NCBI GenBank assembly: GCA_046328905.1
Contig: JAXLVP010000002.1
Coordinates: 197,499 to 261,498 of the forward strand
Reading direction: 5' to 3'
Length of the DNA stretch: 64,000 nt
Source of the DNA: Bdellovibrionota bacterium
GTDB taxonomy: Bacteria; Bdellovibrionota_C; UBA2361; SZUA-149; CAZDWZ01
Shown: positions 1 to 38,353 of the stretch, piece by piece
Layout: each line of letters starts with the position of its first letter
How positions within the stretch are numbered: the first letter of the stretch is position 1
Position numbers and translations under genes: made by a program
Notes under the pieces: generated by a model
Told to the model about the DNA's origin: nothing
Seen by the model: only the letters and a program-made list of their open reading frames with translations
Databases searched by the model: none

Positions 1-78
1 TTTCGTGAATTTCGCTCCGGCATAGCTGTTCTTTCCTATGATGAGGATATTTTCAGCCATACTCGTTGCCGACGAACC

Positions 79-912
79 CTATATCGGGTTCCCCCAATTA
101 ATCCATGTCGTCTCGTCGTTATGCTGCTCGCCTTTCTGAATTGGGAAGAACTGCAGAAGCCGAGGCTCGTGAATTTTCGGGTCGTACCCGTTTTTTGCAA
201 GCTCTTCCGGGAAATATCCCACGGCACAGGTCGAACGTGTGATGTTGTTTGGCACTTTCTTAACAACGACAGAAAGCTGACCATTGTAGGTCGCAATCGA
301 TGCGTTTCTGCAATCGAAGCCGGCACAGACGAGCTGATTGAGAAGCGTCCACTGATTGTAAAGATTGTGATGTCCGGACACGAATGAGTGAAGAGAAAGC
401 GCCGAGTTCATAAAAGGCACCGTCAAAGCCAGAACCCCGCCCTCACGCAGATCGTCATACACTTTGTCGAGAAACGCCCCCGGATTGCGAATATGCTCCA
501 GCACATGGCTGCACCAGATCGCATCGAACTTCCGGATGAATCTTACGTCCAGGAAGTCCACCTCGATATCCACTTCACGACATGGGAAATCAGGATGATT
601 TTGCCACGGCTTTGCTGGCTCGAGCGCCGCGACATCCTTCCCGAGTGCATCGAAGATGTAGCTCGCCATACCGTCGTTTGTCCCAAGGTCGAGCACAGTC
701 CTGAAATCGTAGTGCTTGATAAGCTTCAGCATCGCGAGATGCGCGTACCAGAGCGGTCGTCGGTATGTTTTTCCGCCGCGCGAGATCGCGAATTCCACGG
801 CGCAAGGCGTCCAGCGGAACGGTGGCAGCGGCCGCACTTCGATTCTCGGTTCGGCTCCCGGTGGATCGGAATATTCCCGCCCGACCTCTCGCGTCATAAA
901 GTCGCCGTTCAT
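79..912 (-). CDS. class I SAM-dependent methyltransferase
   Basis: 277-aa ORF with glycine-rich SAM-binding motif I (VLDLGTNDG) followed by an acidic residue; start overlaps the upstream gene stop by 4 nt (operon coupling). Confidence 0.7.
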   Translation of the reverse strand: MNGDFMTREVGREYSDPPGAEPRIEVRPLPPFRWTPCAVEFAISRGGKTYRRPLWYAHLAMLKLIKHYDFRTVLDLGTNDGMASYIFDALGKDVAALEPAKPWQNHPDFPCREVDIEVDFLDVRFIRKFDAIWCSHVLEHIRNPGAFLDKVYDDLREGGVLALTVPFMNSALSLHSFVSGHHNLYNQWTLLNQLVCAGFDCRNASIATYNGQLSVVVKKVPNNITRSTCAVGYFPEELAKNGYDPKIHEPRLLQFFPIQKGEQHNDETTWINWGNPI

Positions 913-1823
913 TTTCCGATCTCCTCGATAATCAACTTTCTGCTCAAACCATGCGCCTGCCGAAGCTCGGCGTGGCTACCATAAACGTGAACAAATTCAT
1001 CTTTCAGACTGAAGGTCTTTAAAGCACACGTGGCTTTCGTATCCCACGCAATCTGCTTCACTTGCGCGGCCAGCCCACCTACGCAGGAATGTTCTTCGAT
1101 TGTAACGACGAGTGAATGCGTCTTGAGAGCTTTTGCAATTCCCTCTCGGTCGATAGGCTTCATAGTATGGCAGGAGACGAGCGAAACGGATCGTCCCTGC
1201 CCCGCAAGCTCCTTGGCCACATCACCGGCAAGGTCCATGACATGTCCAAAAGCGAGCACGCACACGTCAGTCCCTTTGGTGATGTATCGAATCTTTCCGA
1301 ACTCGAACGGGTCCACCGCTTTGTCCGTAAAGTTCGGCTCTCCCGCCTTTCCAATTCGGAGATACACGGGTCCTGGTGACACCGCACAGTAGCGAATTGC
1401 CTCCGCGAGCTCGAGGGGGTCACACGGAGCAAGAATTGAGATATTCGGGATCGGACTCAGGATACCCACATCCTCTTGCGTAAGGTGCGTACCTCCGAGC
1501 GTCGAATAAATAATTCCCGCGCCCATTCCGACCACCGTGACTGGCAGATTCTGATAGCAGAGGTCGTCGCGAATCATCTCGAACGGACGATAAGCGCTAA
1601 ATGTGGCGATGGTGTAAGCGAATGGTCGAAATCCGCGAAGAGCCATGCCGGCGCACAAACCGATCATACCCTGCTCGGACACCCCAACATCGATGAACTT
1701 CTCCGGGAATTGTTTGCGAAACAGCTCCATGCTTCCGACGGGAGAGATATCAGCGACGACGCAGCAGATATTCGGATCTGCCATCCCCACTTCATAAAGG
1801 GTCTGGGCAAATAGATTTCTCAT
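909..1823 (-). CDS. transketolase, C-terminal (pyrimidine-binding) subunit
   Basis: 304-aa ORF resembling the pyrimidine-binding/C-terminal half of transketolase (IDVGVSEQGMIG, AGMALRGFRPFAYTIATF, VTVVGMGAGI); coupled to the N-terminal subunit gene immediately upstream. Confidence 0.8.
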   Translation of the reverse strand: MRNLFAQTLYEVGMADPNICCVVADISPVGSMELFRKQFPEKFIDVGVSEQGMIGLCAGMALRGFRPFAYTIATFSAYRPFEMIRDDLCYQNLPVTVVGMGAGIIYSTLGGTHLTQEDVGILSPIPNISILAPCDPLELAEAIRYCAVSPGPVYLRIGKAGEPNFTDKAVDPFEFGKIRYITKGTDVCVLAFGHVMDLAGDVAKELAGQGRSVSLVSCHTMKPIDREGIAKALKTHSLVVTIEEHSCVGGLAAQVKQIAWDTKATCALKTFSLKDEFVHVYGSHAELRQAHGLSRKLIIEEIGK

Positions 1824-2641
1824 CGCAGACCTCCTTCGAGCTCGGACAGCGCTTGCTTATATTCTTCGGCGTTCGGGGAACGATAGTGCCAGATCGGCAC
1901 GTTCTCCATGTAGCTTACACCTTTTCCCTTCGTCGTACGGCAAATAACGAACAGGGGCTTCTGACCTTTCCGCGACATAACCGCATCAAACATCGCCGCC
2001 GAATCGTGGCCGTTTTCGATCTCCTTCACTTCCCAACCGAATGCAGCCACTTTGTCGCCAACCGGATAAAATGTCGGATGCAGCTCGCTCGTGCGTCCAA
2101 GCGATTGAAAGTCGTTGAGGTCAAGGAACGCGACGAGATTTGTGATACCAAGCGAAGACGCAATCATCATGCCTTCCCAGGTCGAGCCTTCTTGCAGCTC
2201 GCCGTCGCTCAACACCGCATACACGTTTGCATCTTCATTTCGGATCTTATGTGCGTAGGCAATTCCGGCAGACATCGTCATGCCATGCCCGAGTGATCCG
2301 GTTGACGCCTCAATACCCGGATTCCCGTAGTCAGGGTGAGTCCCGAGAATCCCGTCCGGCTTGCAGTACCGGTCAAGATGCTTCGACTCCAAAACTCCGA
2401 GCTTTTCGAGCGCCATATACTGGGCCAAACATCCATGCCCTTTGGACATGACGAACGTGTCCGGGCTCGTTCCGTCCGGGTTCCGACGCATGAGCGAGAA
2501 GTAGCAAAGCTCGGTAATCTCCATACAGGAGTAGGCCGACGCGATATGGAGGGCCGAGACCGTTTGCGAGATATGGAGAATCCGCTTGCGGAACTCAAGG
2601 CAGCGAGCCTGCGATGCTGCGAGATCGAATTTTTTCGTCAT
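1820..2641 (-). CDS. transketolase, N-terminal (TPP-binding) subunit
   Basis: TPP-binding half of a split transketolase (SKGHGC, SLGHGMTMSAGIAYA, LSDGELQEGSTWE). Start set at ATG 2641, which has a GAGG RBS 7 nt upstream; the track ORF extends to 2680 (TTG). Confidence 0.8.
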   Translation of the reverse strand: MTKKFDLAASQARCLEFRKRILHISQTVSALHIASAYSCMEITELCYFSLMRRNPDGTSPDTFVMSKGHGCLAQYMALEKLGVLESKHLDRYCKPDGILGTHPDYGNPGIEASTGSLGHGMTMSAGIAYAHKIRNEDANVYAVLSDGELQEGSTWEGMMIASSLGITNLVAFLDLNDFQSLGRTSELHPTFYPVGDKVAAFGWEVKEIENGHDSAAMFDAVMSRKGQKPLFVICRTTKGKGVSYMENVPIWHYRSPNAEEYKQALSELEGGLR

Positions 2642-2661
2642 ATGAGCCTCGTCGCGGACCA

Positions 2662-3315
2662 TCAGTTGATGATCGTCCAATAATAATCGCCGGTGTAGCC
2701 GGCTTCATCGAAAATCTTCTTCCAGAAATCCGGATATCCGTGAGTCTTCGCGGTGAGCACCCACTTCGCAAAGATCTCCTCCTCTTCCTTTGTCCGATAG
2801 GAGTCGACCTGAATGAAGCCTTTGCCTGGTGCGATCCGCTGCATCTCCTTGATCGCCTGAATGCAAAGTGGCCGCTCGAGGTTGTGTAGCGTGTTCAGAG
2901 AGATCGCCGCCGTGAAGCTTTTGTCCGGAAAAGGAAGCTTGAGCGCGTTCCCGAGATGGAGGCGGCCGACGACTTCCGGCTCGCAGTGCATGAGCGCGTA
3001 CTCTGATATCTCAATCCCGTAAACTTCCAAGCCTGGACATACCTTCATGAGGTCCTTGACGAGAAAGCCCTTTGCGCAACCGATGTCGAGAACGCGATCG
3101 CCCGGCTTTAGCCCCCAATGCTCGACGAAAGTCTCGGCGACGGGGATCCAACGACCGTCGTAGCGGTAGCCGCCGTAGCCGTGGTTGCGACTCCCATCGA
3201 AGTAATCCTTCCCGTACTGCAATGCGATGCGTTTGTCCTCCTCGGACGCAGCGGCACGCTCGGTGAGGTTCCGTTTCGGCTTCGGAAGTTTGTGCAGGAG
3301 CTCGATCTCAGCCAT
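2662..3315 (-). CDS. class I SAM-dependent methyltransferase
   Basis: Motif I VLDIGCAKGFL; start placed at ATG 3315 (GAGGA RBS), 1 nt after the upstream stop; track ORF extends to 3348. Confidence 0.7.
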   Translation of the reverse strand: MAEIELLHKLPKPKRNLTERAAASEEDKRIALQYGKDYFDGSRNHGYGGYRYDGRWIPVAETFVEHWGLKPGDRVLDIGCAKGFLVKDLMKVCPGLEVYGIEISEYALMHCEPEVVGRLHLGNALKLPFPDKSFTAAISLNTLHNLERPLCIQAIKEMQRIAPGKGFIQVDSYRTKEEEEIFAKWVLTAKTHGYPDFWKKIFDEAGYTGDYYWTIIN

Positions 3316-3316
3316 T

Positions 3317-4189
3317 CTATCCTCGCGCCTTCTTGATACCTTCGCCAAACGGCGTCATGCGAAAAGCCGGAAAATTGCGTAGGAGCTCAGTGATATCAAA
3401 GTGACGGTGCGTTACCGGGCTTTGTCGCGGTTGATTGACAATTTTCACCTCGGTCATCAATCCCTTGATCGAAGCTGCGACTTCACCAAACGAGAGAGCA
3501 CTGCCCGAAGCGGCGTTGACAACTCCAGTCGCCTTACGAGAAACCAGCTCAGTAATGAGAGAGATGAGATCGTCGATGAACAGATGGTCTCGCTGTTCTT
3601 CGCCCTGACCGGTCAATGAGATCTCATTTTTCTCGAGAGCCGTCTTGAGAAAACGATTCGGGCCATAGCTGTTGTGAGTGTCTCCGGCTCCGTATATCGC
3701 GCAGGGACGAACAATGAGCAGGGGCGTTCCCGCCTTTTTGCAGGACTCCGCCAGCATTCTCTCCCGCGCGAGATGCATCACTCCGTGGAAGCTGCTCGGA
3801 TTACAGGCAGAGGTCTCACGCACCGGATGGGCAGCGTCATCGTAGACTGCATCCGAACTAATATAAACGACATGTGCACACGGATGAGCTTCAATAGCTT
3901 CACACACCGCGTCTGCCATCGCCAGATTCTTCAAGAGAGTCTTCCGGTCCCGCCCTTTGTCAGGCGTAAGGGCCGAAATGAAGACCAGGGTGTCTTCTGA
4001 ATTCAGCGCTTCGCCGAGCTTGGTTCCCGCGTCTTCGGAAAGGAGATCAAGGTCCCGAGATGAGAGCGCCTTCGTTGCCCAACCCAGCTCGCGAGTTTTC
4101 GCTTCTAGATTCTTCCCCACGAAACCACGTGAACCGAGTATTACCATTCGCGAAGGTGTCTTTCTTTCTGACGAACTGAGACTCAGCAT
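3317..4189 (-). CDS. NAD(P)-dependent epimerase/dehydratase family (SDR) sugar reductase/epimerase
   Basis: N-terminal Rossmann motif ILGSRGFVGKNL and SDR-like fold; start at ATG 4189 (GGAG RBS) 1 nt after upstream stop. Confidence 0.65.
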   Translation of the reverse strand: MLSLSSSERKTPSRMVILGSRGFVGKNLEAKTRELGWATKALSSRDLDLLSEDAGTKLGEALNSEDTLVFISALTPDKGRDRKTLLKNLAMADAVCEAIEAHPCAHVVYISSDAVYDDAAHPVRETSACNPSSFHGVMHLARERMLAESCKKAGTPLLIVRPCAIYGAGDTHNSYGPNRFLKTALEKNEISLTGQGEEQRDHLFIDDLISLITELVSRKATGVVNAASGSALSFGEVAASIKGLMTEVKIVNQPRQSPVTHRHFDITELLRNFPAFRMTPFGEGIKKARG

Positions 4190-4190
4190 T

Positions 4191-5483
4191 TCATTTCTCC
4201 GTCTTTTTCCCCAAAGTGTGCACGGTAAAGCCTGCCTGATCAAAATCGCGTGAGCTCAACGCGCCGAACGGATCAAGAACCACCCGCCCCTTCATCGCGT
4301 TGGCGACCTCGCCCGCAGGAATCTTCTTGAACTCTGACCACGGGGTTATGAGCACGAGCACGTCCGCTCCTTCACACGCATGGAGAGCGGATTCGGCTTG
4401 CACGACTCGATTCGCCGCGCGTTCACCGAGCTTCACCATCGGGTCATACGCTCGAACACGTTGAGCCTTCAGCGAATCGATCAGCGCAACGGACGGCGAA
4501 TTCTTGATTGAGTGAGTGTCCGGCTTGTAGGCGATTCCCCAGATTCCGATGAGTGGGTCATCTTGCTTTGAAAACACAACTGACGAAAGCTTCCTGAGTA
4601 CCCAGTCTCGTCGATAGACGGCATTGGAAAACCAAGCTTCGATTACCGAGCTATCTGTTCCATGCTCCCGCGCGAGCGACTGCACGGTCACCAGATCTCG
4701 TTCCAAGTTACCGCCCGCGATCCCAAGACCGGGCTGCAGATACGCATGCGGGCCGATTCTTTTATCAAGCCGAAGTGATGGGGCGATCTCGCCCCACTCT
4801 GCCCCTATCTCTTCGCAAAGCTCTGCGAGCGTGCTCGTCGTAATCACTGAGGAAACCAGAAACATGTTGATAGAGATCTTTGCAAGCTCCGCGCTCTCAT
4901 AGCGCATCGGCAGAACAGGACAATCAAAGAGCGAGAGCACCTTCTGATACGCATCCGGGAGCGGAGCCTTCGGGTCCTTGCAACCAACGATGTATCGCTC
5001 CGGGTTGAGCATGCGGCTCATTGCGATACCGAAGACCAGTGTCTCCACCTGGTAATACAGTTGAATGTTCCGATTCTCGCGTTCGACGAGGGCTCCGAGC
5101 GCTCGGGTGAATCCAGGCGACACCTGGCTGTGGATAACCAGCGTCGCGCCGGTTTTGAGCGACGGGAGAATTTTTTCGAAAAGCTCCAATATCGGCGTTG
5201 GGTCGCTGATATTCTTGTCCGAGGTCGGCACGTCGCGAGCAATGTAGAGCACTTCACATCCGCCGAGGTCAGCTTGGTTCGCGGTGAATCGCACTCGGCT
5301 CCCCGCTTCGTGCAAGAGCTCAGACAGATTCTCCTCGAACACAGGCAGCTCGAACCTCGCCAACTTCGCCACGAGCGACGCGTCCGTTTCGAAGCCGAGA
5401 ATGTTCGCACCGCGAGATGCCAGCCCCACGCCGGTTATGAGACCGAGGTGCGAAAGTCCGACAATACCAACGTTCAGGCTCAC
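4191..5483 (-). CDS. nucleotide-sugar 6-dehydrogenase (UDP-glucose/GDP-mannose dehydrogenase family)
   Basis: 430 aa; N-terminal NAD-binding VGIVGLSHLGL and C-terminal GIAYKPDTHSIKNSPS...YDP motif typical of this family. Confidence 0.8.
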   Translation of the reverse strand: MSLNVGIVGLSHLGLITGVGLASRGANILGFETDASLVAKLARFELPVFEENLSELLHEAGSRVRFTANQADLGGCEVLYIARDVPTSDKNISDPTPILELFEKILPSLKTGATLVIHSQVSPGFTRALGALVERENRNIQLYYQVETLVFGIAMSRMLNPERYIVGCKDPKAPLPDAYQKVLSLFDCPVLPMRYESAELAKISINMFLVSSVITTSTLAELCEEIGAEWGEIAPSLRLDKRIGPHAYLQPGLGIAGGNLERDLVTVQSLAREHGTDSSVIEAWFSNAVYRRDWVLRKLSSVVFSKQDDPLIGIWGIAYKPDTHSIKNSPSVALIDSLKAQRVRAYDPMVKLGERAANRVVQAESALHACEGADVLVLITPWSEFKKIPAGEVANAMKGRVVLDPFGALSSRDFDQAGFTVHTLGKKTEK

Positions 5484-6394
5484 TTCCCCTCCTCATACAG
5501 CTTGCGCAGCGTCCTGTTGATCCAAAGGTCGTTGTCGAGATTCGTACCGCCGCGTTTCGCATGCTCAACAAAATATTCGTATTCGAGCTTCCACGTGGGG
5601 TCGGCACACTCGAGCGTATCGGATGCTTCAGTCGGACGTCCGGATGGCAGAACCCGCTTGCGAACAGTGATCGTGCTCGGCCCCCATTTACACAGGCAGT
5701 TGACATGAAGCGATCCGGCATCTCCGATCACATCCAGCCGAAATGTGTTTCTCCACGACAGCAACGTCGCCTCGAGCTGGATGCGCGGCATCTCAGCTTG
5801 CGAGCCGAAAACAACGTGGTCATACGAATTATTTTCCAGCCGGTAGTAACTGAACGGCTTGAGGTCCGTTCGGTGCTCACCAAGCAAGAAATCGGTTGTA
5901 TCAAGCAGGTGAGAACCGAGGTCCGCCAGCACACCCATTCCTTTGTCTCGCCAGACAGAGTTACGAACTTCACGCGCCGTCCCGTTTCCGTAGAACATCT
6001 CGAGGGAAAGAACCTTCCCAATCTCCCCCGCCGTTATAATTTCGCGGGCGCGGACGAGAAACGGCTCGAAGCGATGGTTGTATGCGGTGTAACAAAACAC
6101 CCGCCGCTTCGCGGCCAGATCGCGAAGGCGCTCGATATCCCGGTCGTCCTCGCTCACGAGCGGTTTTTCGACTAGGACGTGCTTCCCGTTATCGAGGAGG
6201 TAGGAAAGAATCTCGATCTTTGCTTCGTCCGGAGTGCACACCAATGCCGCGTCATACGATTCGAGTGGAACGTCTTGCACTCGCGTAAACTGGGCGTCCG
6301 GCTTTACAGGATCAACCGTCGCAACAAGATCGCTGCCGGCGAACTTGCTGCGTTTCGCACCTTGAATCCCGAGCCCGGCGACGATGACTCTCAT
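5480..6394 (-). CDS. Gfo/Idh/MocA family NAD(P)-dependent oxidoreductase
   Basis: N-terminal Rossmann fold with the VLVEKPL (EKP) signature; translationally coupled on both sides. Confidence 0.75.
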   Translation of the reverse strand: MRVIVAGLGIQGAKRSKFAGSDLVATVDPVKPDAQFTRVQDVPLESYDAALVCTPDEAKIEILSYLLDNGKHVLVEKPLVSEDDRDIERLRDLAAKRRVFCYTAYNHRFEPFLVRAREIITAGEIGKVLSLEMFYGNGTAREVRNSVWRDKGMGVLADLGSHLLDTTDFLLGEHRTDLKPFSYYRLENNSYDHVVFGSQAEMPRIQLEATLLSWRNTFRLDVIGDAGSLHVNCLCKWGPSTITVRKRVLPSGRPTEASDTLECADPTWKLEYEYFVEHAKRGGTNLDNDLWINRTLRKLYEEGK

Positions 6395-19474: not shown

Positions 19475-19476
19475 GT

Positions 19477-21962: not shown

Positions 21963-21987
21963 GCCACCTCCCAAAATCCGCTGCGCG

Positions 21988-26598: not shown

Positions 26599-26600
26599 GC

Positions 26601-27830: not shown

Positions 27831-27849
27831 TTGCTGACAGGAGCGGGCT

Positions 27850-29128: not shown

Positions 29129-29134
29129 GGAAGT

Positions 29135-31017: not shown

Positions 31018-32982
31018 ATGCTCAGCTCCATCTACGACTACAAAACCCAGCTAACGAAACTCGCAGATGAGTTGCTTGCTCGCGGCGAGGTGACGGAAGC
31101 CGAGTTCATTTTGCGTCGAATGGTGGAACACTATCCTTCCCTTGGTGAAGGCTGGCGGCGCCTCGCGAACGTCTTGGTGAAGCTCGAGCGGTTCGACGAG
31201 GCAGAGGAGACTATCGCGCGCGCCTGTGCAATCGATCCTCATGATGCAGAATCGTACCTTGTAAAATGCTCTCTCGTGGAAAAGCTCCGCGGTGAACAGG
31301 AAGCTGAGAAGCTGCTCAGGGCTGGAGTTGCTGGTCGTGAGCAGTGGTGGAAAGTCCGAGTCGCCCTCGCACAGCTACTCGTTCGAACGGGGCGTGAGGC
31401 AGAGAGCGAATCGATTCTCCAGTCCCTGCTCGATGAGCAGTGGGACGCGGATATTGCTGCAGACCTTGCAGGCGTCAAGCTTCGCCTTGGCAAGCTTGCG
31501 GAAGCGCAAGCTCTCATCGTTCGATTCTCGAGTGAGGGCGCCGCGCCACAGAAACTATTCGATACCGCACGCGCGCTCGTCGAAGCAAAAGCTCACGATG
31601 CAGCATGGCAGTTCATTCAAGCCCTGCTTGGTGCAGGGATTATCGACGAACAGGTTTTCCAGTCGCTCGGTGAGCTGCTGACGCAGATTCACGGTCCCGA
31701 ATCAGGACTTCAGTTTTTTGAGAGCGTGCTCAAGCAAAGCAACAGCAAGAACTTGCGCGAGTCAGCGGTAAACGCCGCCGTTGAAACTCGCGCACCGGCG
31801 TTGATTTCGCTGAGCTCGAAGCGCCGCGCCGTCTTCGTGGCTGAGATTCCTAAGGTCCGAGAGACCAAGCTCGCGGCCGGACTACGCGCGTTCGGATGGG
31901 AGGTAATTCTCCTCTGCAAGAAGGCGCCCGACTACGATATCTCGCTTTATTTCGACGCGATGATTCCCTTCGGGACTGCGGAAGAAGCGCAGTATCTCGC
32001 TCGTCGTCTCCATGCGAGCATCTTTCATGTGTTCGCCTCCGCGGTTGATGAAACTGCTCTTTCGTTCATCAAAGACAAACCGGGGGTCACTTTGTTCGAC
32101 GTCACCGATGTGTTCGACGGCATGATCTACGAGCACCCGGCGCTCATGGAAGCGCAGCGCTATTGTTTCCTGAACGCAGACGGGCTTGTTTGCCGCGACC
32201 TCCAAACAAACTTGCCGCTCAAGCGCGCAGGTCTTTCGCGGCCGAAGCACACCCTGTTCTTTCCAGAATTCTGCTGGAACACGACTCCGAAAATCGTCGA
32301 CCGCCCGGGACCAGAGCTCCATATTGTCCAAGCGGGATGGATCGATCTTCAGGGAAAAACCGAACGTAAAGAAAGCAGCGCCTTTGACCTCTTCCAGGCG
32401 TTTGCTCAAGCCGGAATCCACGTACATCTCTACAAGCACATGCTCTTCGGCGATGCAGATCCTAGAACGCTGTACGGAGATTTGTACGAGCTACAGATGC
32501 AGTACGGCTGCGTCCACATCCACCAGACCGTACCGGTGAACCGTATCTGCAGCGAGCTGACGCAGTACCATATCGGGATGAACATCGCAGCACACACCGT
32601 CTTCATGAGCCGTGAGACGAAGCACTCCAAGAATGCGTATCACTTCTCGCTTTGCGGCTCCTCGCGAAATGTCGACTATTTGGAGGCCGGCCTTCCTGTC
32701 CTGCAAAGCGCAGACCTTACGTTCCAAAAGTTTATGCTCAAACGGATGGGAGTTGGATTCCCACTCAAGAAGCAACACCTGAACGATCTGAAAAACTATC
32801 TATCGCAGTATAATTCGCGTGAGGCTCGGGAGAAGATCTATTCTCGCAGGGAGAAATACTCGGTCGCATCACAGTCACATCGGCTGGCTTCGTTTTACGA
32901 CGCATGCTTGGGATATACCGAGCCGGTCAAGGAAAGGGCTTTCGACGTGAACGTTATCCCTTCATTCCCACCCTTCGCTTGA
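31018..32982 (+). CDS. TPR-repeat protein with C-terminal GT-B-like (glycosyltransferase-like) domain
   Basis: N-terminal about 250 aa with TPR-like helical repeats; C-terminal region with GT-B-like features (VDYLEAGLPVL); architecture reminiscent of TPR-glycosyltransferases. Confidence 0.45.
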   Translation: MLSSIYDYKTQLTKLADELLARGEVTEAEFILRRMVEHYPSLGEGWRRLANVLVKLERFDEAEETIARACAIDPHDAESYLVKCSLVEKLRGEQEAEKLLRAGVAGREQWWKVRVALAQLLVRTGREAESESILQSLLDEQWDADIAADLAGVKLRLGKLAEAQALIVRFSSEGAAPQKLFDTARALVEAKAHDAAWQFIQALLGAGIIDEQVFQSLGELLTQIHGPESGLQFFESVLKQSNSKNLRESAVNAAVETRAPALISLSSKRRAVFVAEIPKVRETKLAAGLRAFGWEVILLCKKAPDYDISLYFDAMIPFGTAEEAQYLARRLHASIFHVFASAVDETALSFIKDKPGVTLFDVTDVFDGMIYEHPALMEAQRYCFLNADGLVCRDLQTNLPLKRAGLSRPKHTLFFPEFCWNTTPKIVDRPGPELHIVQAGWIDLQGKTERKESSAFDLFQAFAQAGIHVHLYKHMLFGDADPRTLYGDLYELQMQYGCVHIHQTVPVNRICSELTQYHIGMNIAAHTVFMSRETKHSKNAYHFSLCGSSRNVDYLEAGLPVLQSADLTFQKFMLKRMGVGFPLKKQHLNDLKNYLSQYNSREAREKIYSRREKYSVASQSHRLASFYDACLGYTEPVKERAFDVNVIPSFPPFA

Positions 32983-33031: not shown

Positions 33032-33907
33032 CTACACCCGCTCCAGGAGATACCCGGATACAATATGTCCAAGCATGCGGACGGTCACCTCGAAGTAGCC
33101 CCCGCGGCCGGCGCCTGAGGGAACGTATATGTGTTTCTGTGCCCGGACGTTTCCGGCGTCGGCACCTACGATGGCCACCGTTCTTGCGCCCTGCTTGTTC
33201 GCTTGATCGAGCGCTCTTCGAACGCTGTTCGATTTGCCTCGGGCAGATATTCCGATCACGAGGTCGTTCTGCTCGAGCTCCGCTTTGAGCTGCTTCACGA
33301 ACGCAAACTCGTACCCCGGATCTTCCACGCTTGGAGCTTGCTCTTCAACTTCGTCGTTGAGGCACGTTACGGTGAACGGGGCGGTGACCGCAGTGATGAG
33401 GTCATTCGTGAGAAGAGACGCGAGATGCGCACCCGAGGCGTCGCCGCAAATGAAGATGCGATTGCCGTTCTCCTTCGCGGTGGCGATTACTTGCGCGAGA
33501 GCGCCGATTTCAGACGCGCGAAGCCCGTGCAGTGCTTTGCCGATGCTGGAGAGGTAGCCGGTGAGATAGTCTTGGAACTTTCCTTCCGAGGCCGGCTTCT
33601 CTTTCGGTAGCTCTCGCTCGATGAGGGTAAGCGCAGCTCGGCGCTTCGAAATGCTTTTCACGTCTGCGTTGGACCGAACGAGCAGCACCTGCGCACCCGC
33701 CCTCTTCAGCTCGCGGAATGACGTTTCGAGCTCGCGCCGATCGGCGGAGCGTCGAACCAGGAGTGGCCCGTTATCGAAGATTCCGTCGAGCTCGAAGATG
33801 CGAGAGATGGCATGGCCACGAAGGGCTTTCGCAACCCTCTCCTTCGAATCCTCGGCATCATCGCGAACACCTTCCAATATCAGCTCAAAGCAATCGGAAC
33901 TCTTCAT
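33032..33907 (-). CDS. SIS-domain sugar-phosphate isomerase (GmhA-like) with about 100-aa N-terminal extension
   Basis: C-terminal SIS motifs (IFICGDASGAHLASL; LVIGISARGKSNSV; VAIVGADAGN); N-terminal domain unassigned. Confidence 0.6.
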   Translation of the reverse strand: MKSSDCFELILEGVRDDAEDSKERVAKALRGHAISRIFELDGIFDNGPLLVRRSADRRELETSFRELKRAGAQVLLVRSNADVKSISKRRAALTLIERELPKEKPASEGKFQDYLTGYLSSIGKALHGLRASEIGALAQVIATAKENGNRIFICGDASGAHLASLLTNDLITAVTAPFTVTCLNDEVEEQAPSVEDPGYEFAFVKQLKAELEQNDLVIGISARGKSNSVRRALDQANKQGARTVAIVGADAGNVRAQKHIYVPSGAGRGGYFEVTVRMLGHIVSGYLLERV

Positions 33908-34137: not shown

Positions 34138-35241
34138 ATGCTGAAAGTAATCAATATCGTCGGCGCACGGCCGAACTTCATGAAAATTGCCCCGCTTGTC
34201 AGGGCATTTGGCGAAAGCCCCGTTTTTGAGCAGCGGCTGGTTCATACTGGGCAGCATTACGATCCAGGGCTGTCGGACATATTTTTTCAGGAGCTTGGCA
34301 TCCCGGCGCCGGACGTGGCGCTCGGCGTCGGCTCTTTTCCTCGAGAAGAGCAGATCGCAAAGATTGAAGAGCTCTTCGAACCGGTGCTCGTGAAAGAGCA
34401 GCCGGACCTCGTTCTCGTCGTCGGCGACGTGAATTCAACTGTCGCGTGCGCTCGTGTGGCCCGCAAACACGATGTGAAGGTCGCGCACGTCGAAGCAGGG
34501 TTGCGAAGCTTCGATCTCAGAATGCCGGAAGAGCACAATCGTATCGCAACCGACAAGATCTCGGATTTCCTCTACGTGACTGAGCAGGCCGGACTCGAGA
34601 ACTTGGCGCGAGAGCAAGTTCCCGGACGAGCGGAGCTCGTCGGCAACGTCATGATCGATACGCTCGTGTATCAACTCGAACGGGCACGAAAGACGACAAA
34701 GCTGTCCGAGCTTGGGCTTACGCCTGGCAGCTACATTGTTTCCACTTTCCATCGACCGAGCAATGTCGACTCGCGGGAGACTCTCGAGAAGCTACTCGAG
34801 ATTCTCGAGCTCGTGACTTCATTCGGCTCTCTCGTACTGCCTCTCCACCCGCGAACTCAGCACTCGATGGAGTCTTTCGGGCTGGCCGATCGGCTTCGCG
34901 GAATCGAGAATCTTCACCTGACACCTCCACTCGGCTACCTGGATTTCATCGGGTTGGTCGCGAGCGCGAAGGCCGTCGTGACTGACTCCGGCGGCATCCA
35001 AGAAGAGACGACGTATCTCGGTATTCCATGCCTAACGATGCGTGAGAATACCGAGCGCCCAGTCACTATCGACCTCGGCTCGAACATGCTCATCGGCTCG
35101 GACCTCAACAAGCTTCGCACCGAGCTCGAAAGGATTAAGTTGGGACGCTACAAGAAAGGTGCGATCCCTCCGCTCTGGGATGGCCACGCAGCAGAGCGGA
35201 TCGTCCGCGACCTCGCCGCACAGCTGAAGAAAAGGAACTAG
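34138..35241 (+). CDS. wecB: UDP-N-acetylglucosamine 2-epimerase (non-hydrolysing, WecB/MnaA family)
   Basis: Hallmark motifs GARPNFMKIAPL, HVEAGLRS, TDSGGIQEE; 367 aa. Confidence 0.85.
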   Translation: MLKVINIVGARPNFMKIAPLVRAFGESPVFEQRLVHTGQHYDPGLSDIFFQELGIPAPDVALGVGSFPREEQIAKIEELFEPVLVKEQPDLVLVVGDVNSTVACARVARKHDVKVAHVEAGLRSFDLRMPEEHNRIATDKISDFLYVTEQAGLENLAREQVPGRAELVGNVMIDTLVYQLERARKTTKLSELGLTPGSYIVSTFHRPSNVDSRETLEKLLEILELVTSFGSLVLPLHPRTQHSMESFGLADRLRGIENLHLTPPLGYLDFIGLVASAKAVVTDSGGIQEETTYLGIPCLTMRENTERPVTIDLGSNMLIGSDLNKLRTELERIKLGRYKKGAIPPLWDGHAAERIVRDLAAQLKKRN

Positions 35242-35242
35242 C

Positions 35243-36526
35243 ATGCCCCGCGTGCTGATGCTTTGCTACTACTACCCGCCGATTATTGCTTCCGGCGTGA
35301 CGAGAAGTCTCGCGTTCTCGGAGCATCTTCCCGAATTCGGCTGGGAACCGCTGATCCTGTCCGTGAACCGTTCGAAAGATCCCTGGGTGAAATCGGGAAG
35401 TGAAGTCCCCGATTGGGTCACTATCGAGCGCACCAACGAATGGAATTTTGCCGGCCTTTGCGACTTGCTTCACGCGGGCGCATGCGCCGCGTTTCGCCTC
35501 TTCAAGAAGGATCTGAAGACCAACTACTTTCGTGAATGGTTGGCGCTGCCGGACACTCAGATCGCATGGCTTTCGTCTGCGGCGGGAGTCAAGCTTGCCT
35601 CAACCTGCGACATCATTTACGCGAGCTGCTCTCCGTTCAGCTCAGCCCTGAGCGGTTGTATGATCGCCGGGCGGACCAGGAAACCGCTCGTCGTCGACTT
35701 TCGGGATGCTTGGAGCCTGAACCCTCACTCCCCGCACGGATGGCTGCACCAGACAGCAATCCGCATGATGGAGCAGAAAGTCGTGCGACAGGCCGATCGC
35801 GTGATCCTCAATACCAACGGAGCAGGCGAGCTATATAAAAAGACCTACCCGCAATATGCTCAGAAGTTCGTCGTCATCCCGAACGGCTACGACGAGCTTA
35901 CTCCGGTGAAGCCCAACACAGCGCCCGATGCTCCGTTTCGAATATTGCACCTCGGCAGCTTCTACGGTGAACGCTCTCCACGTGTGCTTCTGGAAGCATT
36001 AGCCGAGCTGCCGGAGCTGCCGATTGAATTCGTTCAGATCGGAGGGTCGTTTGACTGCGCTGACGAGTTCAAGAACCGGGTGAAGATGAGCATCTCGCCT
36101 GCGGTTCCCCGAGAGGAGGCGCTTCGGCGAATGACTCAGGCTTCGCTCCTCTACCTGAAACAGGGGTTCGAAAAAGGGGTGAGCCGAGATATTGCGGTGG
36201 CCGCGAAGACCTACGAGTATTTGGGGACCGGATTGCCGATCCTGGCCGAGCTCCCGCCTGGCGATAATTCCGACATCATCCAGAAGTACGCCGGCAAGGC
36301 ATTTATCATCAATTCACCCGACAAAGAGGCCCTGAAGCGGGCCGTTCGAGAGGCGTTCGAAGCTCGAAACTCGACTGAGCCGGCTGTAAGCCACGACTTC
36401 GTCCGCGATTTCAATCGTCGAGGCCTGACCAAGCGGCTTGCTGACATTTTCAACGAGCTCCGCGCAGTCAGCCCATCCCATCAGAGGACCGCTTTCACCG
36501 TTCCCAAGCCGAGACCTGAGTATTAG
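35243..36526 (+). CDS. GT4-family (GT-B) glycosyltransferase
   Basis: C-terminal E-x7-E-type region (KTYEYLGTGLPILA) typical of retaining GT4 enzymes; coupled to wecB. Confidence 0.8.
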   Translation: MPRVLMLCYYYPPIIASGVTRSLAFSEHLPEFGWEPLILSVNRSKDPWVKSGSEVPDWVTIERTNEWNFAGLCDLLHAGACAAFRLFKKDLKTNYFREWLALPDTQIAWLSSAAGVKLASTCDIIYASCSPFSSALSGCMIAGRTRKPLVVDFRDAWSLNPHSPHGWLHQTAIRMMEQKVVRQADRVILNTNGAGELYKKTYPQYAQKFVVIPNGYDELTPVKPNTAPDAPFRILHLGSFYGERSPRVLLEALAELPELPIEFVQIGGSFDCADEFKNRVKMSISPAVPREEALRRMTQASLLYLKQGFEKGVSRDIAVAAKTYEYLGTGLPILAELPPGDNSDIIQKYAGKAFIINSPDKEALKRAVREAFEARNSTEPAVSHDFVRDFNRRGLTKRLADIFNELRAVSPSHQRTAFTVPKPRPEY

Positions 36527-36634: not shown

Positions 36635-37225
36635 ATGGGCACTGGTTCACTCCGCTCGCTCCTCGAAGCTCAACTGAAGGATCTGTACAACATCGAGATC
36701 CAGATGCTCATCCAACTGCCTCGGTTGAAAAGTCGTTGCGCGTCTGACCAGCTCTATCGTGCGCTCGATGAGCATGAAGATGTCACCAACCTTCAGCTCA
36801 AACGGCTCGAAGAGATCGGCTTCACGTTGGCCGTGGAGCTCACGGGAAAAACGAGCACAGTGATGCAGTCCCTCATCGAGGAGGCAGAGGAGCTTCTCGA
36901 AGAAAACGCTCCAGCAACCGTTTATGACATTGCGACTGCAAGCTTCGCGCAGCGCATCATTCATCTGGAGATCGCCGCTTACAAGTCGGCTTCATCTCTG
37001 GCGGATCACCTTGGTTTGAGCCGCGTGTATAATATGCTGCTCGAGAGTCTCACGGAGGAGAACTCGATGAACGATCTCTTGGCTGAGATCCGAAAGAGCG
37101 AGCTATTCCCGAAAAACGATTGGGAGTGGAGCTCGACTCAGGAAGCATACAACGACCTACCGGGCGACCCAGCCTTCCTCACCGACTCCGACGTCGAAGA
37201 CGACTACCCGAGCGATATCTACTAG
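36635..37225 (+). CDS. ferritin-like domain protein (YciE/DUF892-like)
   Basis: N-terminal LKDLYNIEIQML pattern typical of the YciE/YciF ferritin-like family; acidic C-terminus. Confidence 0.45.
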   Translation: MGTGSLRSLLEAQLKDLYNIEIQMLIQLPRLKSRCASDQLYRALDEHEDVTNLQLKRLEEIGFTLAVELTGKTSTVMQSLIEEAEELLEENAPATVYDIATASFAQRIIHLEIAAYKSASSLADHLGLSRVYNMLLESLTEENSMNDLLAEIRKSELFPKNDWEWSSTQEAYNDLPGDPAFLTDSDVEDDYPSDIY

Positions 37226-37342
37226 CTCCACGACAGCACCTCGCTAAGCCCCGTATCTTCCTAGTCGTTGCAGTTGTACCTTGCCGCGCTCCACGACGTT
37301 CATGGTATGGGAGGGCGTTGCCACAACGCGAAAGGACCTCCG

Positions 37343-38353
37343 ATGCTTCCTAAAGAACCCTCTCCTGCCTTATTTTTCGAAACAATCAACGCTTACCATC
37401 GCACGGCGGCGCTGAAGGGCGCAGTTGAGCTTGGGATTTTCAGTGTGCTCGGCCAAGGAAGCACCGCGGCCGATATCGCGAAGTCGTGTAACGCGACCGA
37501 GCGAGGTATCAGAATTCTGTGCGATTATCTTACCATCGCCGGCTTCCTGAAGAAAAAAGGCGAGCGCTACAGCAACACGCCGGATAGCGAAGCGTTCCTC
37601 CGGAAGGATTCGCGCACGTACGTCGGAGGCACTCTCCAGTTTCTTCTGTCCGACCAACTCCAAGAGTCGTTTCGTGATGTCGCAGGTTGCGTCAAGCGCG
37701 GCGGTACTTTGCTGGAAGGAGCCGGCACAGTTGATCCAGACGACCCGGTGTGGGTGGACTTCGCGCAAGGGATGGCGCCCATGATGATGCCGGCGGCGCT
37801 CGATCTTGCGAGCCTCGTACCTCAAGCAGTCGATCAGCCGATTCGTGTGCTTGATATAGCTGCCGGCCACGGAATATTCGGCATCACCATCGCAAAGCGT
37901 TTCCCGAAGGCTGAGATCACGGCTGTCGACTGGCGCGCCGTTCTTGAAGTAGCCAAGGAAAATGCAAGGCGATTCGAGGTAGCGGATCGATACAAGACCA
38001 TCGCCGGCAGCGCTTTTGAGGCCGACTTCAGCGAAGGCTATGACGTTGTCCTACTCACCAACTTCCTTCATCACTTCAATCCCGCTCAGAACGAAGCGCT
38101 TCTCGGACGCGTGAAAAAAGCGCTCAAACCCGGCGGACGCGCACTTACGCTCGAGTTTGTTCCGAATGAAGACAGGGTCTCGCCGCCGTCTTCCGCAGCG
38201 TTCAGCATGGTAATGTTGTGCTCTACGCCTGAGGGTGACGCATACACATTTGCGGAGTTGGAGAAAATGTTCGAGCATGCCGGCTTCGCGAAATCGACGC
38301 TCGTCGAGCTTCCTTCGGGAATGCAGCGGGCTGTTGTAAGCGAGGTTGCCTAG
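37343..38353 (+). CDS. O-methyltransferase family 2 (dimerisation domain + SAM-MT domain)
   Basis: VLDIAAGHGIFG motif I and overall family-2 OMT layout; start set at ATG 37343 (AAGGA RBS). Confidence 0.7.
   Translation: MLPKEPSPALFFETINAYHRTAALKGAVELGIFSVLGQGSTAADIAKSCNATERGIRILCDYLTIAGFLKKKGERYSNTPDSEAFLRKDSRTYVGGTLQFLLSDQLQESFRDVAGCVKRGGTLLEGAGTVDPDDPVWVDFAQGMAPMMMPAALDLASLVPQAVDQPIRVLDIAAGHGIFGITIAKRFPKAEITAVDWRAVLEVAKENARRFEVADRYKTIAGSAFEADFSEGYDVVLLTNFLHHFNPAQNEALLGRVKKALKPGGRALTLEFVPNEDRVSPPSSAAFSMVMLCSTPEGDAYTFAELEKMFEHAGFAKSTLVELPSGMQRAVVSEVA

Follow-up and report, generated by a model that had tools for sequence, protein, structure and literature searches.

The locus raises the question of why a region so rich in genes for the synthesis and decoration of sugars carries no recognisable genes for assembling and exporting a glycan. 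The initial annotation of the window (the whole analysed stretch of DNA, 64,000 nucleotides long, from an uncultured Bdellovibrionota bacterium) had described a tailoring-rich locus without recognisable flippase, polymerase, chain-length or ABC transporter genes, and this description was borne out. The ORF list contains 36 ORFs between positions 79 and 38353; none of the 36 encodes an integral membrane protein, and a hydrophobicity scan revealed none with more than one hydrophobic 19-mer. The intergenic gaps are at most 384 bp, and thus there is no room for hidden genes.

Wzx/Wzy/Wzz or ABC transporter genes directly adjacent to the window had been named as evidence for a conventional locus. 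Therefore, both flanks are of importance, and together with the left flank the window covers about 68 kb of the 1.87-Mb contig. The left flank was recovered from a Logan contig (L001), which is 100% identical to window positions 1915 to 1; the gene order is SDR, GT2, and then TauE and LysR, which mark the left boundary of the island. The right flank (38.4-64 kb) encodes a response regulator, a histidine kinase, RodA/PBP2/MreDCB and metabolic enzymes. Wzx/Wzy/Wzz/ABC genes were found in neither flank (on the right up to 64 kb, on the left in the Logan contig), both consist of ordinary genes, and thus the test set beforehand leaves the description standing. A membrane protein was not found across about 42 kb, and with membrane export machinery lacking, the glycan is probably assembled intracellularly. 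No flagellin, pilin or adhesin gene that could encode an acceptor was found in the window or in L001, and no flagellar gene in the window.

The sugar-biosynthesis island comprises about 36 genes and roughly 40 kb, i.e., 1-36.5 kb of the window and about 2.9 kb leftward. Its GC content is 54.3%, compared with 56.8% in the remainder of the window. Genes at and beyond its right end and several single genes within it are:

34138-35241, + strand: non-hydrolysing UDP-GlcNAc 2-epimerase (Pfam; wecB 294 bits)
35243-36526, + strand: GT4 glycosyltransferase (Pfam)
36635-38353, + strand: DUF892 stress protein and Methyltransf_2 O-methyltransferase with dimerisation domain (Pfam)
10610-11143, - strand: secreted small protein, 177 aa, signal peptide, paralogue of the next
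30332-30880, - strand: secreted small protein, 182 aa, paralogue of the former
16400-17665, - strand: GDSL/SGNH hydrolase (Pfam), true start probably near 17551

The 2-epimerase and GT4 pair may be a separate unit, because its GC content (57.4%) matches that of the flanks. The DUF892 gene (36635-37225) is not part of the island, and the small-molecule-type O-methyltransferase gene (37268-38353) probably lies outside as well. The second secreted-protein gene is transcribed divergently from the TPR-glycosyltransferase gene described below.

Nearly all of the enzyme classes listed initially were found again with Pfam and NCBIfam: two SDRs (besides the first 60 nt of a third SDR gene at the left window edge), NDP-sugar dehydrogenase, Gfo/Idh/MocA oxidoreductase, UDP-galactopyranose mutase (UGM), DegT aminotransferase, GNAT, formyltransferase, GDSL/SGNH hydrolase, 2OG-Fe(II) oxygenase, a radical SAM/SPASM protein, and kinases of the PfkB, APS-kinase-like and PPDK-like types. 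About eight methyltransferases had been counted; six exceeded the Pfam cut-offs (79-912, 2662-3348, 12625-13377, 21988-22758, 22761-23903, 37268-38353), and one further protein is weakly methyltransferase-like (25447-26598). Two or three candidate glycosyltransferases had been noted. GT4 and a TIGR04372 protein account for two, the third is a hidden GT-B domain, and a fourth (GT2) lies left of the window. The TPR-fused transferases, a phosphoramidate module and a transketolase/transaldolase feeder had been overlooked. The proposal of one or a few heavily decorated monosaccharides is strengthened in two ways: the left 10 kb form a single operon, apparently for one nucleotide sugar, and about 30 enzymes of synthesis and tailoring stand against no more than four glycosyltransferases. 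It offered no reason, however, for the missing export genes.

Two soluble transferases in the window are fused to TPR domains, and a further glycosyltransferase gene lies between them:

31018-32982, + strand: TPR_654, N-terminal TPR and C-terminal GT-B glycosyltransferase, 654 aa (TPR by Pfam; AlphaFold2, Foldseek)
11240-12487, - strand: TPR_415, N-terminal TPR and C-terminal sulfotransferase-like domain, 415 aa (TPR by Pfam)
17942-19744, - strand: TIGR04372-family glycosyltransferase (166 bits, cut-off 45)

TPR_654 has neither a signal peptide nor a TM segment. A Foldseek search with its AlphaFold2 model (pLDDT 87) revealed that the C-terminal domain has the GT-B fold (E about 1e-10, TM about 0.6). 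The domain belongs to an undescribed family with 632 representatives and no Pfam model. L093 encodes a homologue of the TIGR04372 protein with 33% identity. As listed, the TIGR04372 ORF runs into the gene before it, and its true start therefore probably lies downstream of 19480. The GT2 encoded immediately to the left of the window is soluble (340 aa) and has a weak, below-threshold C-terminal TPR match. A comparison of architectures showed that FlmG and OGT/SPY are also soluble proteins with N-terminal TPR and C-terminal GT-B domains, FlmG being of similar size (596 aa). In FlmG the TPR domain binds flagellin (PMC7591256). Flagellin glycosylation islands likewise encode soluble enzymes only, but the present island differs from them in that it has no pseudaminic- or legionaminic-acid (nonulosonic-acid) genes and that the window contains no flagellin or flagellar gene.

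At least seven metagenomic sources contain related loci in which the pattern of TPR-transferases without export genes is repeated. The TPR_654-type glycosyltransferase recurs with split transketolase, a 220-aa methyltransferase, SDR, UGM, DegT, formyltransferase and radical SAM genes, and in about 16 of about 20 such loci no ORF with several TM segments was found within about 10 kb. Synteny is closest in L082, which is about 6 kb away from fliOPQR; flagellar neighbours were seen in only one of about seven related loci.

The left 10 kb form one operon, which is kept gene-for-gene on another contig (GCA_041443045.1). The genes of this part, and a further isomerase gene, are:

1-60, - strand: SDR epimerase/reductase, 282 aa, 5' end only, gene continues leftward (Logan contig)
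79-912, - strand: SAM methyltransferase, 277 aa (Methyltransf_23, 50 bits)
909-1823, - strand: split transketolase, C-terminal subunit (Pfam)
1820-2680, - strand: split transketolase, N-terminal (ThDP-binding) subunit (Pfam)
2662-3348, - strand: SAM methyltransferase, 228 aa (Pfam)
3317-4243, - strand: SDR, RmlD-like reductase/epimerase, 308 aa (Pfam/NCBIfam)
4191-5483, - strand: NDP-sugar 6-dehydrogenase, 430 aa (TIGR03026, 209 bits, above cut-off)
5480-6394, - strand: Gfo/Idh/MocA oxidoreductase, 304 aa (Pfam/NCBIfam)
6391-7977, - strand: bifunctional HldE-like protein, N-terminal nucleotidyltransferase and C-terminal PfkB sugar kinase (Pfam)
8021-9022, - strand: SDR epimerase/dehydratase, 333 aa (Pfam/NCBIfam)
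9193-10569, + strand: GmhA-like SIS isomerase (N-terminal) fused to transaldolase (C-terminal) (Pfam/NCBIfam)
33032-33907, - strand, apart from the operon: GmhA-like SIS-domain isomerase with 120-aa N-terminal extension (Pfam/NCBIfam)

With its split transketolase, isomerase-transaldolase fusion, HldE-like protein, dehydrogenases, SDRs and methyltransferase, the 10-gene operon appears to make one higher-carbon nucleotide sugar of the heptose/octose type. Several of its genes recur in related loci. The split transketolase is found beside TPR_654-type genes in L084/L108, L085, L097, L098, L113 and L115, and it is accompanied across related loci by the 228-aa methyltransferase (35-50% identity in L085, L089, L097, L098 and L104). 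Homologues of the HldE-like protein occur beside the same glycosyltransferase family in L090, L095, L101 and L103, and those of the 333-aa SDR in L084, L085 and L090 (56-58% identity). The isomerase-transaldolase fusion (TIGR02134 351 bits, above cut-off; gmhA 49 bits, below) also recurs elsewhere, in some cases extended by a HAD phosphatase. These HAD-SIS-TAL triple fusions and the conservation of the operon tie the transaldolase to a GmhA/GmhB-type pathway.

Five activities of the island, i.e., transaldolase, SIS isomerase, sugar kinase, HAD phosphatase and nucleotidyltransferase, are shared with the NDP-heptose (GmhA-HldE-GmhB-HldD) and lincomycin GDP-octose routes, in the latter represented by LmbR, LmbN, LmbP, LmbK and LmbO, respectively. 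In contrast to the NDP-heptose pathway, the homologues are all below equivalog cut-offs (RfaE domain I 157 bits, domain II 82 bits), and the domain order of the HldE-like protein is swapped. The split transketolase, the 6-dehydrogenase and the Gfo oxidoreductase have no counterpart in either pathway. The dedicated transaldolase, and perhaps also the split transketolase, would form a ketose phosphate, which would be isomerised by the GmhA-like SIS domains, phosphorylated by PfkB, dephosphorylated by the GmhB-like HAD phosphatase and activated by the nucleotidyltransferase. The resulting NDP-sugar would then be remodelled by the SDRs, the 6-dehydrogenase, the Gfo oxidoreductase and methyltransferases.

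Genes for a putative second sugar follow further to the right:

19477-20265, - strand: sugar-1-phosphate nucleotidyltransferase (Pfam/NCBIfam)
20262-20840, - strand: GmhB-like HAD phosphatase (Pfam/NCBIfam)
20847-22100, - strand: UGM-like flavoenzyme (Pfam; 84% identical in L082)
21988-22758, - strand: TylF-type sugar O-methyltransferase (Pfam)
22761-23903, - strand: SAM methyltransferase, 380 aa (Pfam)
24287-30300, + strand: 'sporadic carbohydrate cluster' operon (Pfam/NCBIfam) with radical SAM/SPASM, 383-aa methyltransferase-like protein, DegT aminotransferase, TIGR04324 2OG oxygenase, TIGR04323 LIC12192-family protein, GNAT and formyltransferase

The nucleotidyltransferase and phosphatase pair is syntenic in L082 (49% and 48% identity), and the operon is syntenic in L082 (37-74% identity) and on the P0003 contig. 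The TIGR04323, TIGR04324 and TIGR04372 members of the NCBIfam/TIGRFAMs 'sporadic carbohydrate cluster' are all present above cut-offs. These families are defined by co-occurrence alone, their product and acceptor not being known, and here they are only one part of an island of far greater extent, which also encodes TPR transferases and a phosphoramidate module. The operon, together with UGM, HAD phosphatase and nucleotidyltransferase, may produce an N-acylated amino sugar, probably in the furanose form.

The island also contains a partial Campylobacter-type O-methyl-phosphoramidate (MeOPN) module, with orthologues of three enzymes of the C. jejuni pathway (Cj1415-Cj1422):

12625-13377, + strand: Cj1419/Cj1420-type methyltransferase, 250 aa (40% identity to C. 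jejuni Cj1419; HMM 330 bits)
13379-15790, - strand: Cj1418-type, PPDK-like L-glutamine kinase homologue, 803 aa (NF004508, 970 bits; 42-43% full-length identity with the C. jejuni and C. coli proteins)
15883-16392, + strand: Cj1415-type, APS-kinase-like cytidine diphosphoramidate kinase homologue, 169 aa (NF004041 133 bits, cut-off 127; HMM 165 bits)

Homologues of Cj1416 (cytidylyltransferase) and Cj1417 (amidohydrolase), which are found with Cj1418 in 73-74 of 80 further loci, were not found in the window or the left flank, and thus the route is incomplete as encoded in the island. A heptose-like pathway, UGM, an NDP-sugar dehydrogenase and O-methyltransferases are also common to the island and the C. 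jejuni HS:2 capsule locus. In contrast to C. jejuni, the island has no kps ABC-export genes, which are adjacent there, and TPR_415 is present instead of a DUF2972-type Cj1421/22 transferase. TPR_415 matched Sulfotransfer_1 with E=0.0028, below the cut-off, and four sulfotransferase groups with P about 1e-3 (hhalign); no homologues were found. Its motifs GHSAGT (P-loop-like, residue 174), RDPxxxxxSS (251) and FRKGxxxEW (378) correspond to the 5'-phosphate, 3'-phosphate and FRKGxxxEW motifs of PAPS-dependent sulfotransferases in the same order and with similar spacing, although none of the matches reaches a family threshold and the domain is joined to TPR repeats. Of 80 loci, 33 encode sulfotransferase-family proteins next to the phosphoramidate-donor genes, and so does L110. 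As reportedly described by Taylor and Raushel in 2018, an APS-kinase homologue makes the Campylobacter donor, which is a nucleotide phosphorylated at the 3' position. TPR_415 is a candidate transferase for a PAPS-like phosphoramidate donor, which would be 3'-phospho-CDP-amidate and not PAPS. In four Firmicutes loci, flagellin genes are located no more than 10 kb away from the genes of the Cj1418-type pathway.

How the glycan is used can be read in several ways. The reading that we favour, if tentatively, is cytoplasmic, lipid-carrier-independent glycosylation of protein. TPR and glycosyltransferase fusions are also present in polysaccharide systems, and the best-known setting of UGM, heptose and MeOPN is the C. 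jejuni capsule, with ABC-export genes adjacent. It is conceivable, though rather unlikely, that the island supplies and tailors sugars for an O-antigen, capsule or EPS, with the genes for initiation (phosphoglycosyltransferase), translocation (flippase or ABC transporter), polymerisation and export located elsewhere in the genome. Polysaccharide loci are commonly dispersed in non-enteric bacteria, the analysed sequence is a small part of the contig, multi-TM ORFs are present in 12 of 63 long Cj1418 loci, and the enzyme set parallels the C. jejuni capsule locus, in which KpsC and KpsS directly follow Cj1415 (PMC12409886; the locus was also inspected here). On the other hand, the lack of membrane proteins in about 42 kb argues against it, and its repetition in the independent related loci would be unexpected if export genes were merely elsewhere in one genome; in addition, the TPR fusions would be left unexplained.

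Dedicated export genes would not be needed if peripheral, TM-less glycosyltransferases built an LPS-core or lipooligosaccharide on lipid A-Kdo at the inner leaflet, because housekeeping MsbA/Lpt, encoded elsewhere, would export the product. LOS loci are characteristically devoid of flippase and polymerase genes, the island has HldE-, GmhA-, GmhB- and HldD-like genes, its glycosyltransferases are all soluble, and two related loci, L108 and L115, encode GT9 (heptosyltransferase-family) domains. However, GT9, Kdo transferase, WaaL and lipid A genes are all missing from the window, TPR domains are not known from core transferases, and the sub-threshold, domain-swapped heptose-pathway homologues also make this doubtful. 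Improbable is an intracellular product, either a cytoplasmic polymethylated oligo- or polysaccharide resembling mycobacterial MMP/MGLP or a small-molecule glycoside. Seven methyltransferases (one weak) without any exporter would fit, TylF-type, Methyltransf_2, radical SAM and formyltransferase proteins are typical of natural-product sugar tailoring, and the transaldolase-to-nucleotidyltransferase logic resembles the lincomycin octose route (PMC12945683). The top Foldseek match of the TPR_654 transferase domain was a methylmannose-polysaccharide mannosyltransferase of M. hassiacum (7qsg), but the likeness is at fold level only, with 12% identity and among many GT4 enzymes. Furthermore, no aglycone-forming, resistance or efflux gene and no MMP-type hydrolase is present, and the TPR domains and the phosphoramidate module would remain unexplained.

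Under cytoplasmic protein glycosylation the island would be a self-contained system, in which a few unusual nucleotide sugars are made and heavily decorated. The TPR and GT-B protein, the GT2 with its possible TPR, the GT4 and the TIGR04372 protein would add the sugars, and the Cj1418-, Cj1415- and Cj1419-type enzymes would provide a methyl-phosphoramidate-type group, to be transferred by the TPR and sulfotransferase-like protein. Choice of the acceptor may fall to the TPR domains, as it does in FlmG and OGT. The soluble transferases would thus move the sugars one by one onto a soluble acceptor, most probably a protein, with no lipid carrier, flippase or polymerase involved.

The left border of the sugar-biosynthesis island was followed on the 5.8-kb Logan contig L001, which is identical to window positions 1-1915 (100% identity) and reaches 3.9 kb further left. 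The genes and elements at both borders are as follows.

Borders and flanks of the island (window positions)
L001, beyond the GT2 gene: TauE and a LysR regulator
L001, left of the SDR gene: GT2 glycosyltransferase, soluble, 340 aa, with a weak C-terminal TPR match
From 60 leftward into L001: SDR gene
Ending at 36526: GT4 glycosyltransferase, the last sugar gene on the right
Right flank, in order: DUF892, small-molecule-type O-methyltransferase, response-regulator/cNMP/Crp fusion, HWE histidine kinase
38471-39658 (-): the fusion, an unusual regulator with response-regulator receiver, cyclic-nucleotide-binding domain and Crp-type HTH
39670-42348 (-): the adjoining multi-TM PAS/HisKA_2 (HWE-type) histidine kinase, directly right of the island
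Right flank, further: HAD, deaminase, hydrolase, RodA, PBP2, MreD, MreC, MreB, metabolic genes
54826-54903: 21-nt tandem repeat TCGTTGGCGAAGTATCCCCCT, 2-3 copies, just past the WS/DGAT gene
55563-57359, after the repeat: about 1.8 kb with short or unsupported ORFs only and no Rfam match

Both flanks consist of ordinary genes and the sugar genes end at 36526, and, thus, the island spans about 40 kb. Its GC content is 54.3%, compared with 56.8% in the remaining window, and neither tRNA genes nor Rfam elements were found in the window. The receiver/cNMP/Crp-HTH regulator is a possible candidate for the regulation of the island.

Pfam and NCBIfam scans covered all 36 ORFs, and the enzyme classes listed in the initial annotation were borne out. 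Of the about eight methyltransferases that it had counted, six were recovered above threshold and one more weakly (25447-26598, with a GxGxG motif). Against its two or three candidate glycosyltransferases, the window has three, i.e., the GT4 protein, a TIGR04372 protein and the C-terminal domain of TPR_654 (654 aa, 31018-32982), and the GT2 gene lies just outside. Families of the sporadic carbohydrate cluster type were found clustered and above their curated cut-offs, namely TIGR04323 (319 bits, cut-off 150), TIGR04324 (116 bits, cut-off 55) and TIGR04372 (166 bits, cut-off 45). The listed ORF of the TIGR04372 glycosyltransferase (17942-19744) starts with about 90 Arg-rich, low-complexity-looking residues that overlap the upstream gene, and that of a GDSL hydrolase (16400-17665) with about 38 residues of similar composition; the true starts of both genes probably lie internal to the listed ORFs.

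The initial annotation had also stated that Wzx, Wzy, Wzz and ABC-transporter genes are lacking, and had named their presence next to the window as the counter-evidence to look for. Both flanks were inspected and contained none. Using Pfam, and for the island also a check for multi-TM proteins, no initiating phosphoglycosyltransferase, flippase, ABC transporter, polymerase or chain-length regulator was detected in the island or in either flank. Every island protein has at most one hydrophobic 19-mer, signal peptides are confined to two small paralogous proteins, and no intergenic gap exceeds 384 bp. The Pfam scans, the hydropathy scan and the small gaps together indicate that genes for export and polymerisation are genuinely absent from the island and its flanks. 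No defining gene of a Wzx/Wzy- or ABC-transporter-dependent O-antigen or capsule locus was found there.

The left part of the island contains the following genes.

Left arm, phosphoramidate module and adjoining genes (window positions)
1-10.6 kb: methyltransferase, split transketolase, methyltransferase, SDR, NDP-sugar dehydrogenase, Gfo oxidoreductase, nucleotidyltransferase + PfkB kinase fusion, SDR, and a divergently transcribed SIS + transaldolase fusion (9193-10569)
10610-11143 (-): small secreted protein, 177 aa, directly downstream of the TPR_415 gene
11240-12487: TPR_415, a 415-aa TPR + sulfotransferase-like protein
11.2-16.4 kb: phosphoramidate module
13379-15790: Cj1418-type L-glutamine kinase, 803 aa, PPDK-like

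The arrangement of the left arm is kept gene for gene on a 58.9-kb contig of GCA_041443045.1, which carries also a homologue of the TPR glycosyltransferase and DegT, GNAT, formyltransferase, 2OG and LIC12192 genes. The transaldolase domain belongs to the equivalog TIGR02134 (351 bits). All four activities of the NDP-heptose pathway have homologues in the island, each below its equivalog cut-off: the SIS domain is GmhA-like (gmhA 49 bits, cut-off 209), the kinase/nucleotidyltransferase fusion is HldE-like (rfaE domain I 157 bits, cut-off 345; domain II 82 bits, cut-off 182) with a domain order reversed relative to HldE, and the HAD protein at 20262-20840 is GmhB-like (133 bits, cut-off 178). 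SIS-transaldolase fusions are common in metagenomes, and in some relatives (P0170, P0194, P0201 and P0255) a HAD phosphatase is added on the same polypeptide; these fusions tie the transaldolase functionally to an isomerase/phosphatase pathway.

The logic of the left arm matches the NDP-heptose pathway and also the GDP-octose pathway of lincomycin, where the ketose phosphate is the product of a transaldolase. By analogy, the product would be a sugar with either seven or eight carbons. The transketolase may either supply precursors or add two carbons to a nucleotide sugar. The gene functions of the lincomycin GDP-octose pathway are listed in PMC12945683. A WbpA/B/E/I-type ManNAc3NAcA pathway, composed of UGDH, Gfo, DegT and 2-epimerase, was considered as well and rejected, because UGDH and Gfo are conserved within the transketolase/HldE-like operon. 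Transaldolase and isomerase (in some relatives also a phosphatase) on one polypeptide, together with a split transketolase conserved alongside, point to a new way of making higher-carbon or branched nucleotide sugars.

The phosphoramidate module resembles the O-methyl phosphoramidate (MeOPN) genes of Campylobacter jejuni. The glutamine kinase reached 970 bits with the equivalog NF004508 (cut-off 501) and aligns over residues 7-795, at 42-43% identity, with its counterparts in C. jejuni and C. coli, whose genes stand at the Cj1418 position, flanked by Cj1419 and Cj1417. The APS-kinase-like protein (169 aa) is of the Cj1415 (cytidine diphosphoramidate kinase) type, with 133 bits for NF004041 (cut-off 127) vs 99 bits for true apsK (TIGR00455, cut-off 139), and 165 bits on a local profile. 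The Cj1419/Cj1420-type methyltransferase (250 aa) is present in one copy, is 40% identical to Cj1419 and reached 330 bits. The methyltransferase and kinase profiles comprise 57 and 64 sequences, respectively, from genes that neighbour Cj1418 homologues.

Other genes of the pathway were not detected. Profiles of 73 homologues each found no Cj1416 (CTP:phosphoglutamine cytidylyltransferase) in the window or L001, and the one for Cj1417 (gamma-glutamyl-CDP-amidate hydrolase) had no match (E<=10) when both were translated in six frames. The Cj1416 profile matched, with 51 bits, only the nucleotide-binding motif in the N-terminal 60 residues of a generic 262-aa nucleotidyltransferase (19477-20265); it was rejected as Cj1416 because of this partial match and its synteny with UGM and HAD genes elsewhere. 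A jackhmmer search from the Campylobacter protein retrieved no DUF2972 (Cj1421/Cj1422-type) MeOPN transferase among the window proteins. For comparison, 80 Cj1418 loci (L002-L081) were collected by a scan of genome contigs with 13379-15790 as query. Cj1416 accompanies Cj1418 in 74 and Cj1417 in 73 of these 80 loci, and, thus, the incomplete module of the window is atypical. The steps that it lacks may have been replaced, or their genes may lie elsewhere.

The Cj1418 family was found in at least 559 species-representative genomes, usually with homologues of Cj1415, Cj1416, Cj1417 and Cj1419. The hosts include Lachnospiraceae, Bacteroidota, Bdellovibrionota, Patescibacteria, Elusimicrobiota, Acidobacteriota and a Methanosarcinales archaeon. 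The glutamine-kinase pathway is thus shown in hundreds of species outside Campylobacter; a review from 2022 still termed the kinase C. jejuni-specific (PMC9561416). In four Firmicutes loci (L048, L054, L055, L066) the Cj1418 homologue has flagellin genes no more than 10 kb away, and the encoded proteins are 35-60% identical to B. subtilis Hag (tblastn). This suggests that some Lachnospiraceae and Defluviitaleaceae decorate their flagellin glycans with phosphoramidate-type groups.

The gene for TPR_415 adjoins the phosphoramidate module. Its N-terminal TPRs are followed by the motifs GHSAGT (residue 174), RDPRQAFYSS (251) and FRKGVNDEW (378), the order and approximate spacing of which fit PAPS-binding sulfotransferases. 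The match to Pfam Sulfotransfer_1 was below threshold (17.5 bits, cut-off 22; E=0.0028). With hhalign, the same C-terminal region was always aligned with four independent sulfotransferase-like groups (P about 1e-3, probability 17-25%). A single-sequence AlphaFold2 model of the domain had a pLDDT of 48, too low to assign a fold, a homologue search with the domain returned TPR_415 alone, and jackhmmer searches from TPR_415 or the sulfotransferase of the metagenomic locus L110 gave no link to other loci.

Among the variable neighbours of the phosphoramidate-donor genes, sulfotransferase-family ORFs are the most frequent. They form three clusters and are present at 33 of the 80 Cj1418 loci (L006, L019, L034 and 30 more). 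Representatives of two clusters exceeded the Pfam cut-offs for sulfotransferases, with 43 and 42 bits, and the third is tied to these by hhalign (99.8% probability). In L110 a Sulfotransfer_1 protein (6478-7908) is encoded in one gene string with Cj1419-, Cj1415-, Cj1416- and Cj1418-type genes. For the Campylobacter DUF2972 family (Cj1421 position) the link was marginal (hhalign, 47% probability). Taylor and Raushel reportedly found in 2018 that an APS-kinase homologue of Campylobacter makes the donor, a nucleotide phosphorylated at its 3' position, and a transferase with a sulfotransferase fold would therefore be mechanistically sensible. TPR_415 may thus be an alternative transferase for the phosphoramidate group, a weak but consistent candidate, and the neighbours in the 33 loci and L110 strengthen the idea of a sulfotransferase-type transferase by independent context. 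Sulfotransferase-family proteins are a concrete candidate for the unresolved last MeOPN step; a literature search found no paper joining MeOPN and sulfotransferases. Two large ORFs of the C. coli locus L074 were dropped as MeOPN transferases, as their sequences, inspected by eye, have a helicase/UvrB-type housekeeping look.

Residues 245-654 of TPR_654 have no Pfam match and represent a family of 632 representatives (E<=1e-3). An AlphaFold2 model of this domain, based on an alignment of 39 sequences, had a pLDDT of 87, and Foldseek placed it among GT-B glycosyltransferases (E about 1e-10, TM about 0.6), including the protein O-glycosyltransferases Gtf3, GtfC, SdgB, bacterial OGT and SPY, and also BshA, WaaG-like proteins and MMP mannosyltransferases. 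The matches to OGT and SPY are at the fold level only; Pfam GT41 gave no match, and a profile of the family had none among PDB sequences. Searches of solved structures with the Cj1418-like protein, TPR_654, the TIGR04372 protein and the TPR_415 C-terminus returned only TPR or PEP-synthase fragments or nothing. The N-terminal TPR match and the Foldseek placement identify TPR_654 as a TPR + GT-B protein. It is thus predicted to combine the features of FlmG/OGT-type enzymes, i.e., N-terminal TPRs, a C-terminal GT-B fold and solubility. The likeness to Caulobacter FlmG is one of architecture, and TPR_654 may bind and glycosylate a protein acceptor. FlmG binds flagellins through its TPR half, and they are glycosylated in the cytoplasm by its GT-B half (PMC7591256).

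The related locus L082 shares a block with the window (34-84% identity) that encodes a 383-aa methyltransferase-like protein, the TPR glycosyltransferase, GNAT, formyltransferase, DegT, 2OG oxygenase, LIC12192, UGM, HAD and nucleotidyltransferase, and lies about 6 kb from fliO-P-Q-R. Further loci with the TPR_654 glycosyltransferase family were surveyed (L108/109, L110/107, L111/112, L113/114, L115 and the metagenome loci L084-L106). The family recurs with split transketolase, the 220-aa methyltransferase, SDRs, UGM, DegT, formyltransferase and radical SAM enzymes, and its loci hold also carbamoyltransferases and giant multi-glycosyltransferase proteins with TPRs or GT9 domains. About 16 of 20 such loci are free of ORFs with at least four hydrophobic segments within about 10 kb. 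No flagellin or flagellar genes were found in the window and no flagellin genes in the loci of the family; L082 alone among the related loci has flagellar genes beside it. A literature search found no paper linking transketolase with flagellin islands.

The two proteins with Sec signal peptides (10610-11143 (-), 177 aa, and 30332-30880 (-), 182 aa, divergent from the TPR_654 gene) are 54% identical paralogues. Their cysteines are conserved, and they have a weak motif of the FGE-sulfatase/C-type-lectin type, GIAWEDC...GKRLPEP.EFKIAC. A role as acceptors or in glycan binding is conceivable; homologues were not seen in the related loci.

We tentatively favour the view that a protein is glycosylated stepwise in the cytoplasm, as by flagellin glycosylation islands, because the island encodes no membrane proteins, has two clear TPR transferases and possibly a third, and has many tailoring enzymes per transferase, and because the export-less pattern recurs in independent loci. 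We go no further than this, since no acceptor gene was found in the window or L001 and the flagellar link comes from one locus. Supply of sugars for a polysaccharide would agree with the lack of export genes if these are located elsewhere; in view of the recurrent export-less loci and the TPR transferases we consider it rather unlikely. An LPS-core-type assembly on lipid A would use MsbA for export and would likewise need no transporter in the island, and with the same TPR transferases on the other side it appears improbable. An intracellular methylated glycan or small glycoside would suit the methyltransferases and the absence of membrane proteins, and is the least probable of these explanations.

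Taken together, the observations could be joined in one speculative and, as a whole, doubtful picture, namely an undescribed, widespread, lipid-carrier-free cytoplasmic system. TPR-fused transferases, among them the GT-B family that Pfam does not model, would attach to a protein a higher-carbon sugar made by the transaldolase-GmhA fusion and the split transketolase, and sulfotransferase-fold enzymes would move the phosphoramidate from a PAPS-like 3'-phospho-CDP-amidate. The component families are all known or at least named. Undescribed is their combination, with soluble transferases directed by TPRs, a higher-sugar operon fed by transaldolase and transketolase, and a truncated phosphoramidate module accompanied by a sulfotransferase-like protein. 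If the picture is true, phosphoramidate groups, so far regarded as a peculiarity of Campylobacter, would commonly decorate bacterial glycoproteins, and sulfotransferase-fold enzymes would be the long-sought phosphoramidate transferases. Large export-less glycan islands with TPR transferases would be a recurring genomic type and not truncated O-antigen loci, and in uncultured bacteria a good deal of protein glycosylation in the cytoplasm would so far have gone unrecognised.
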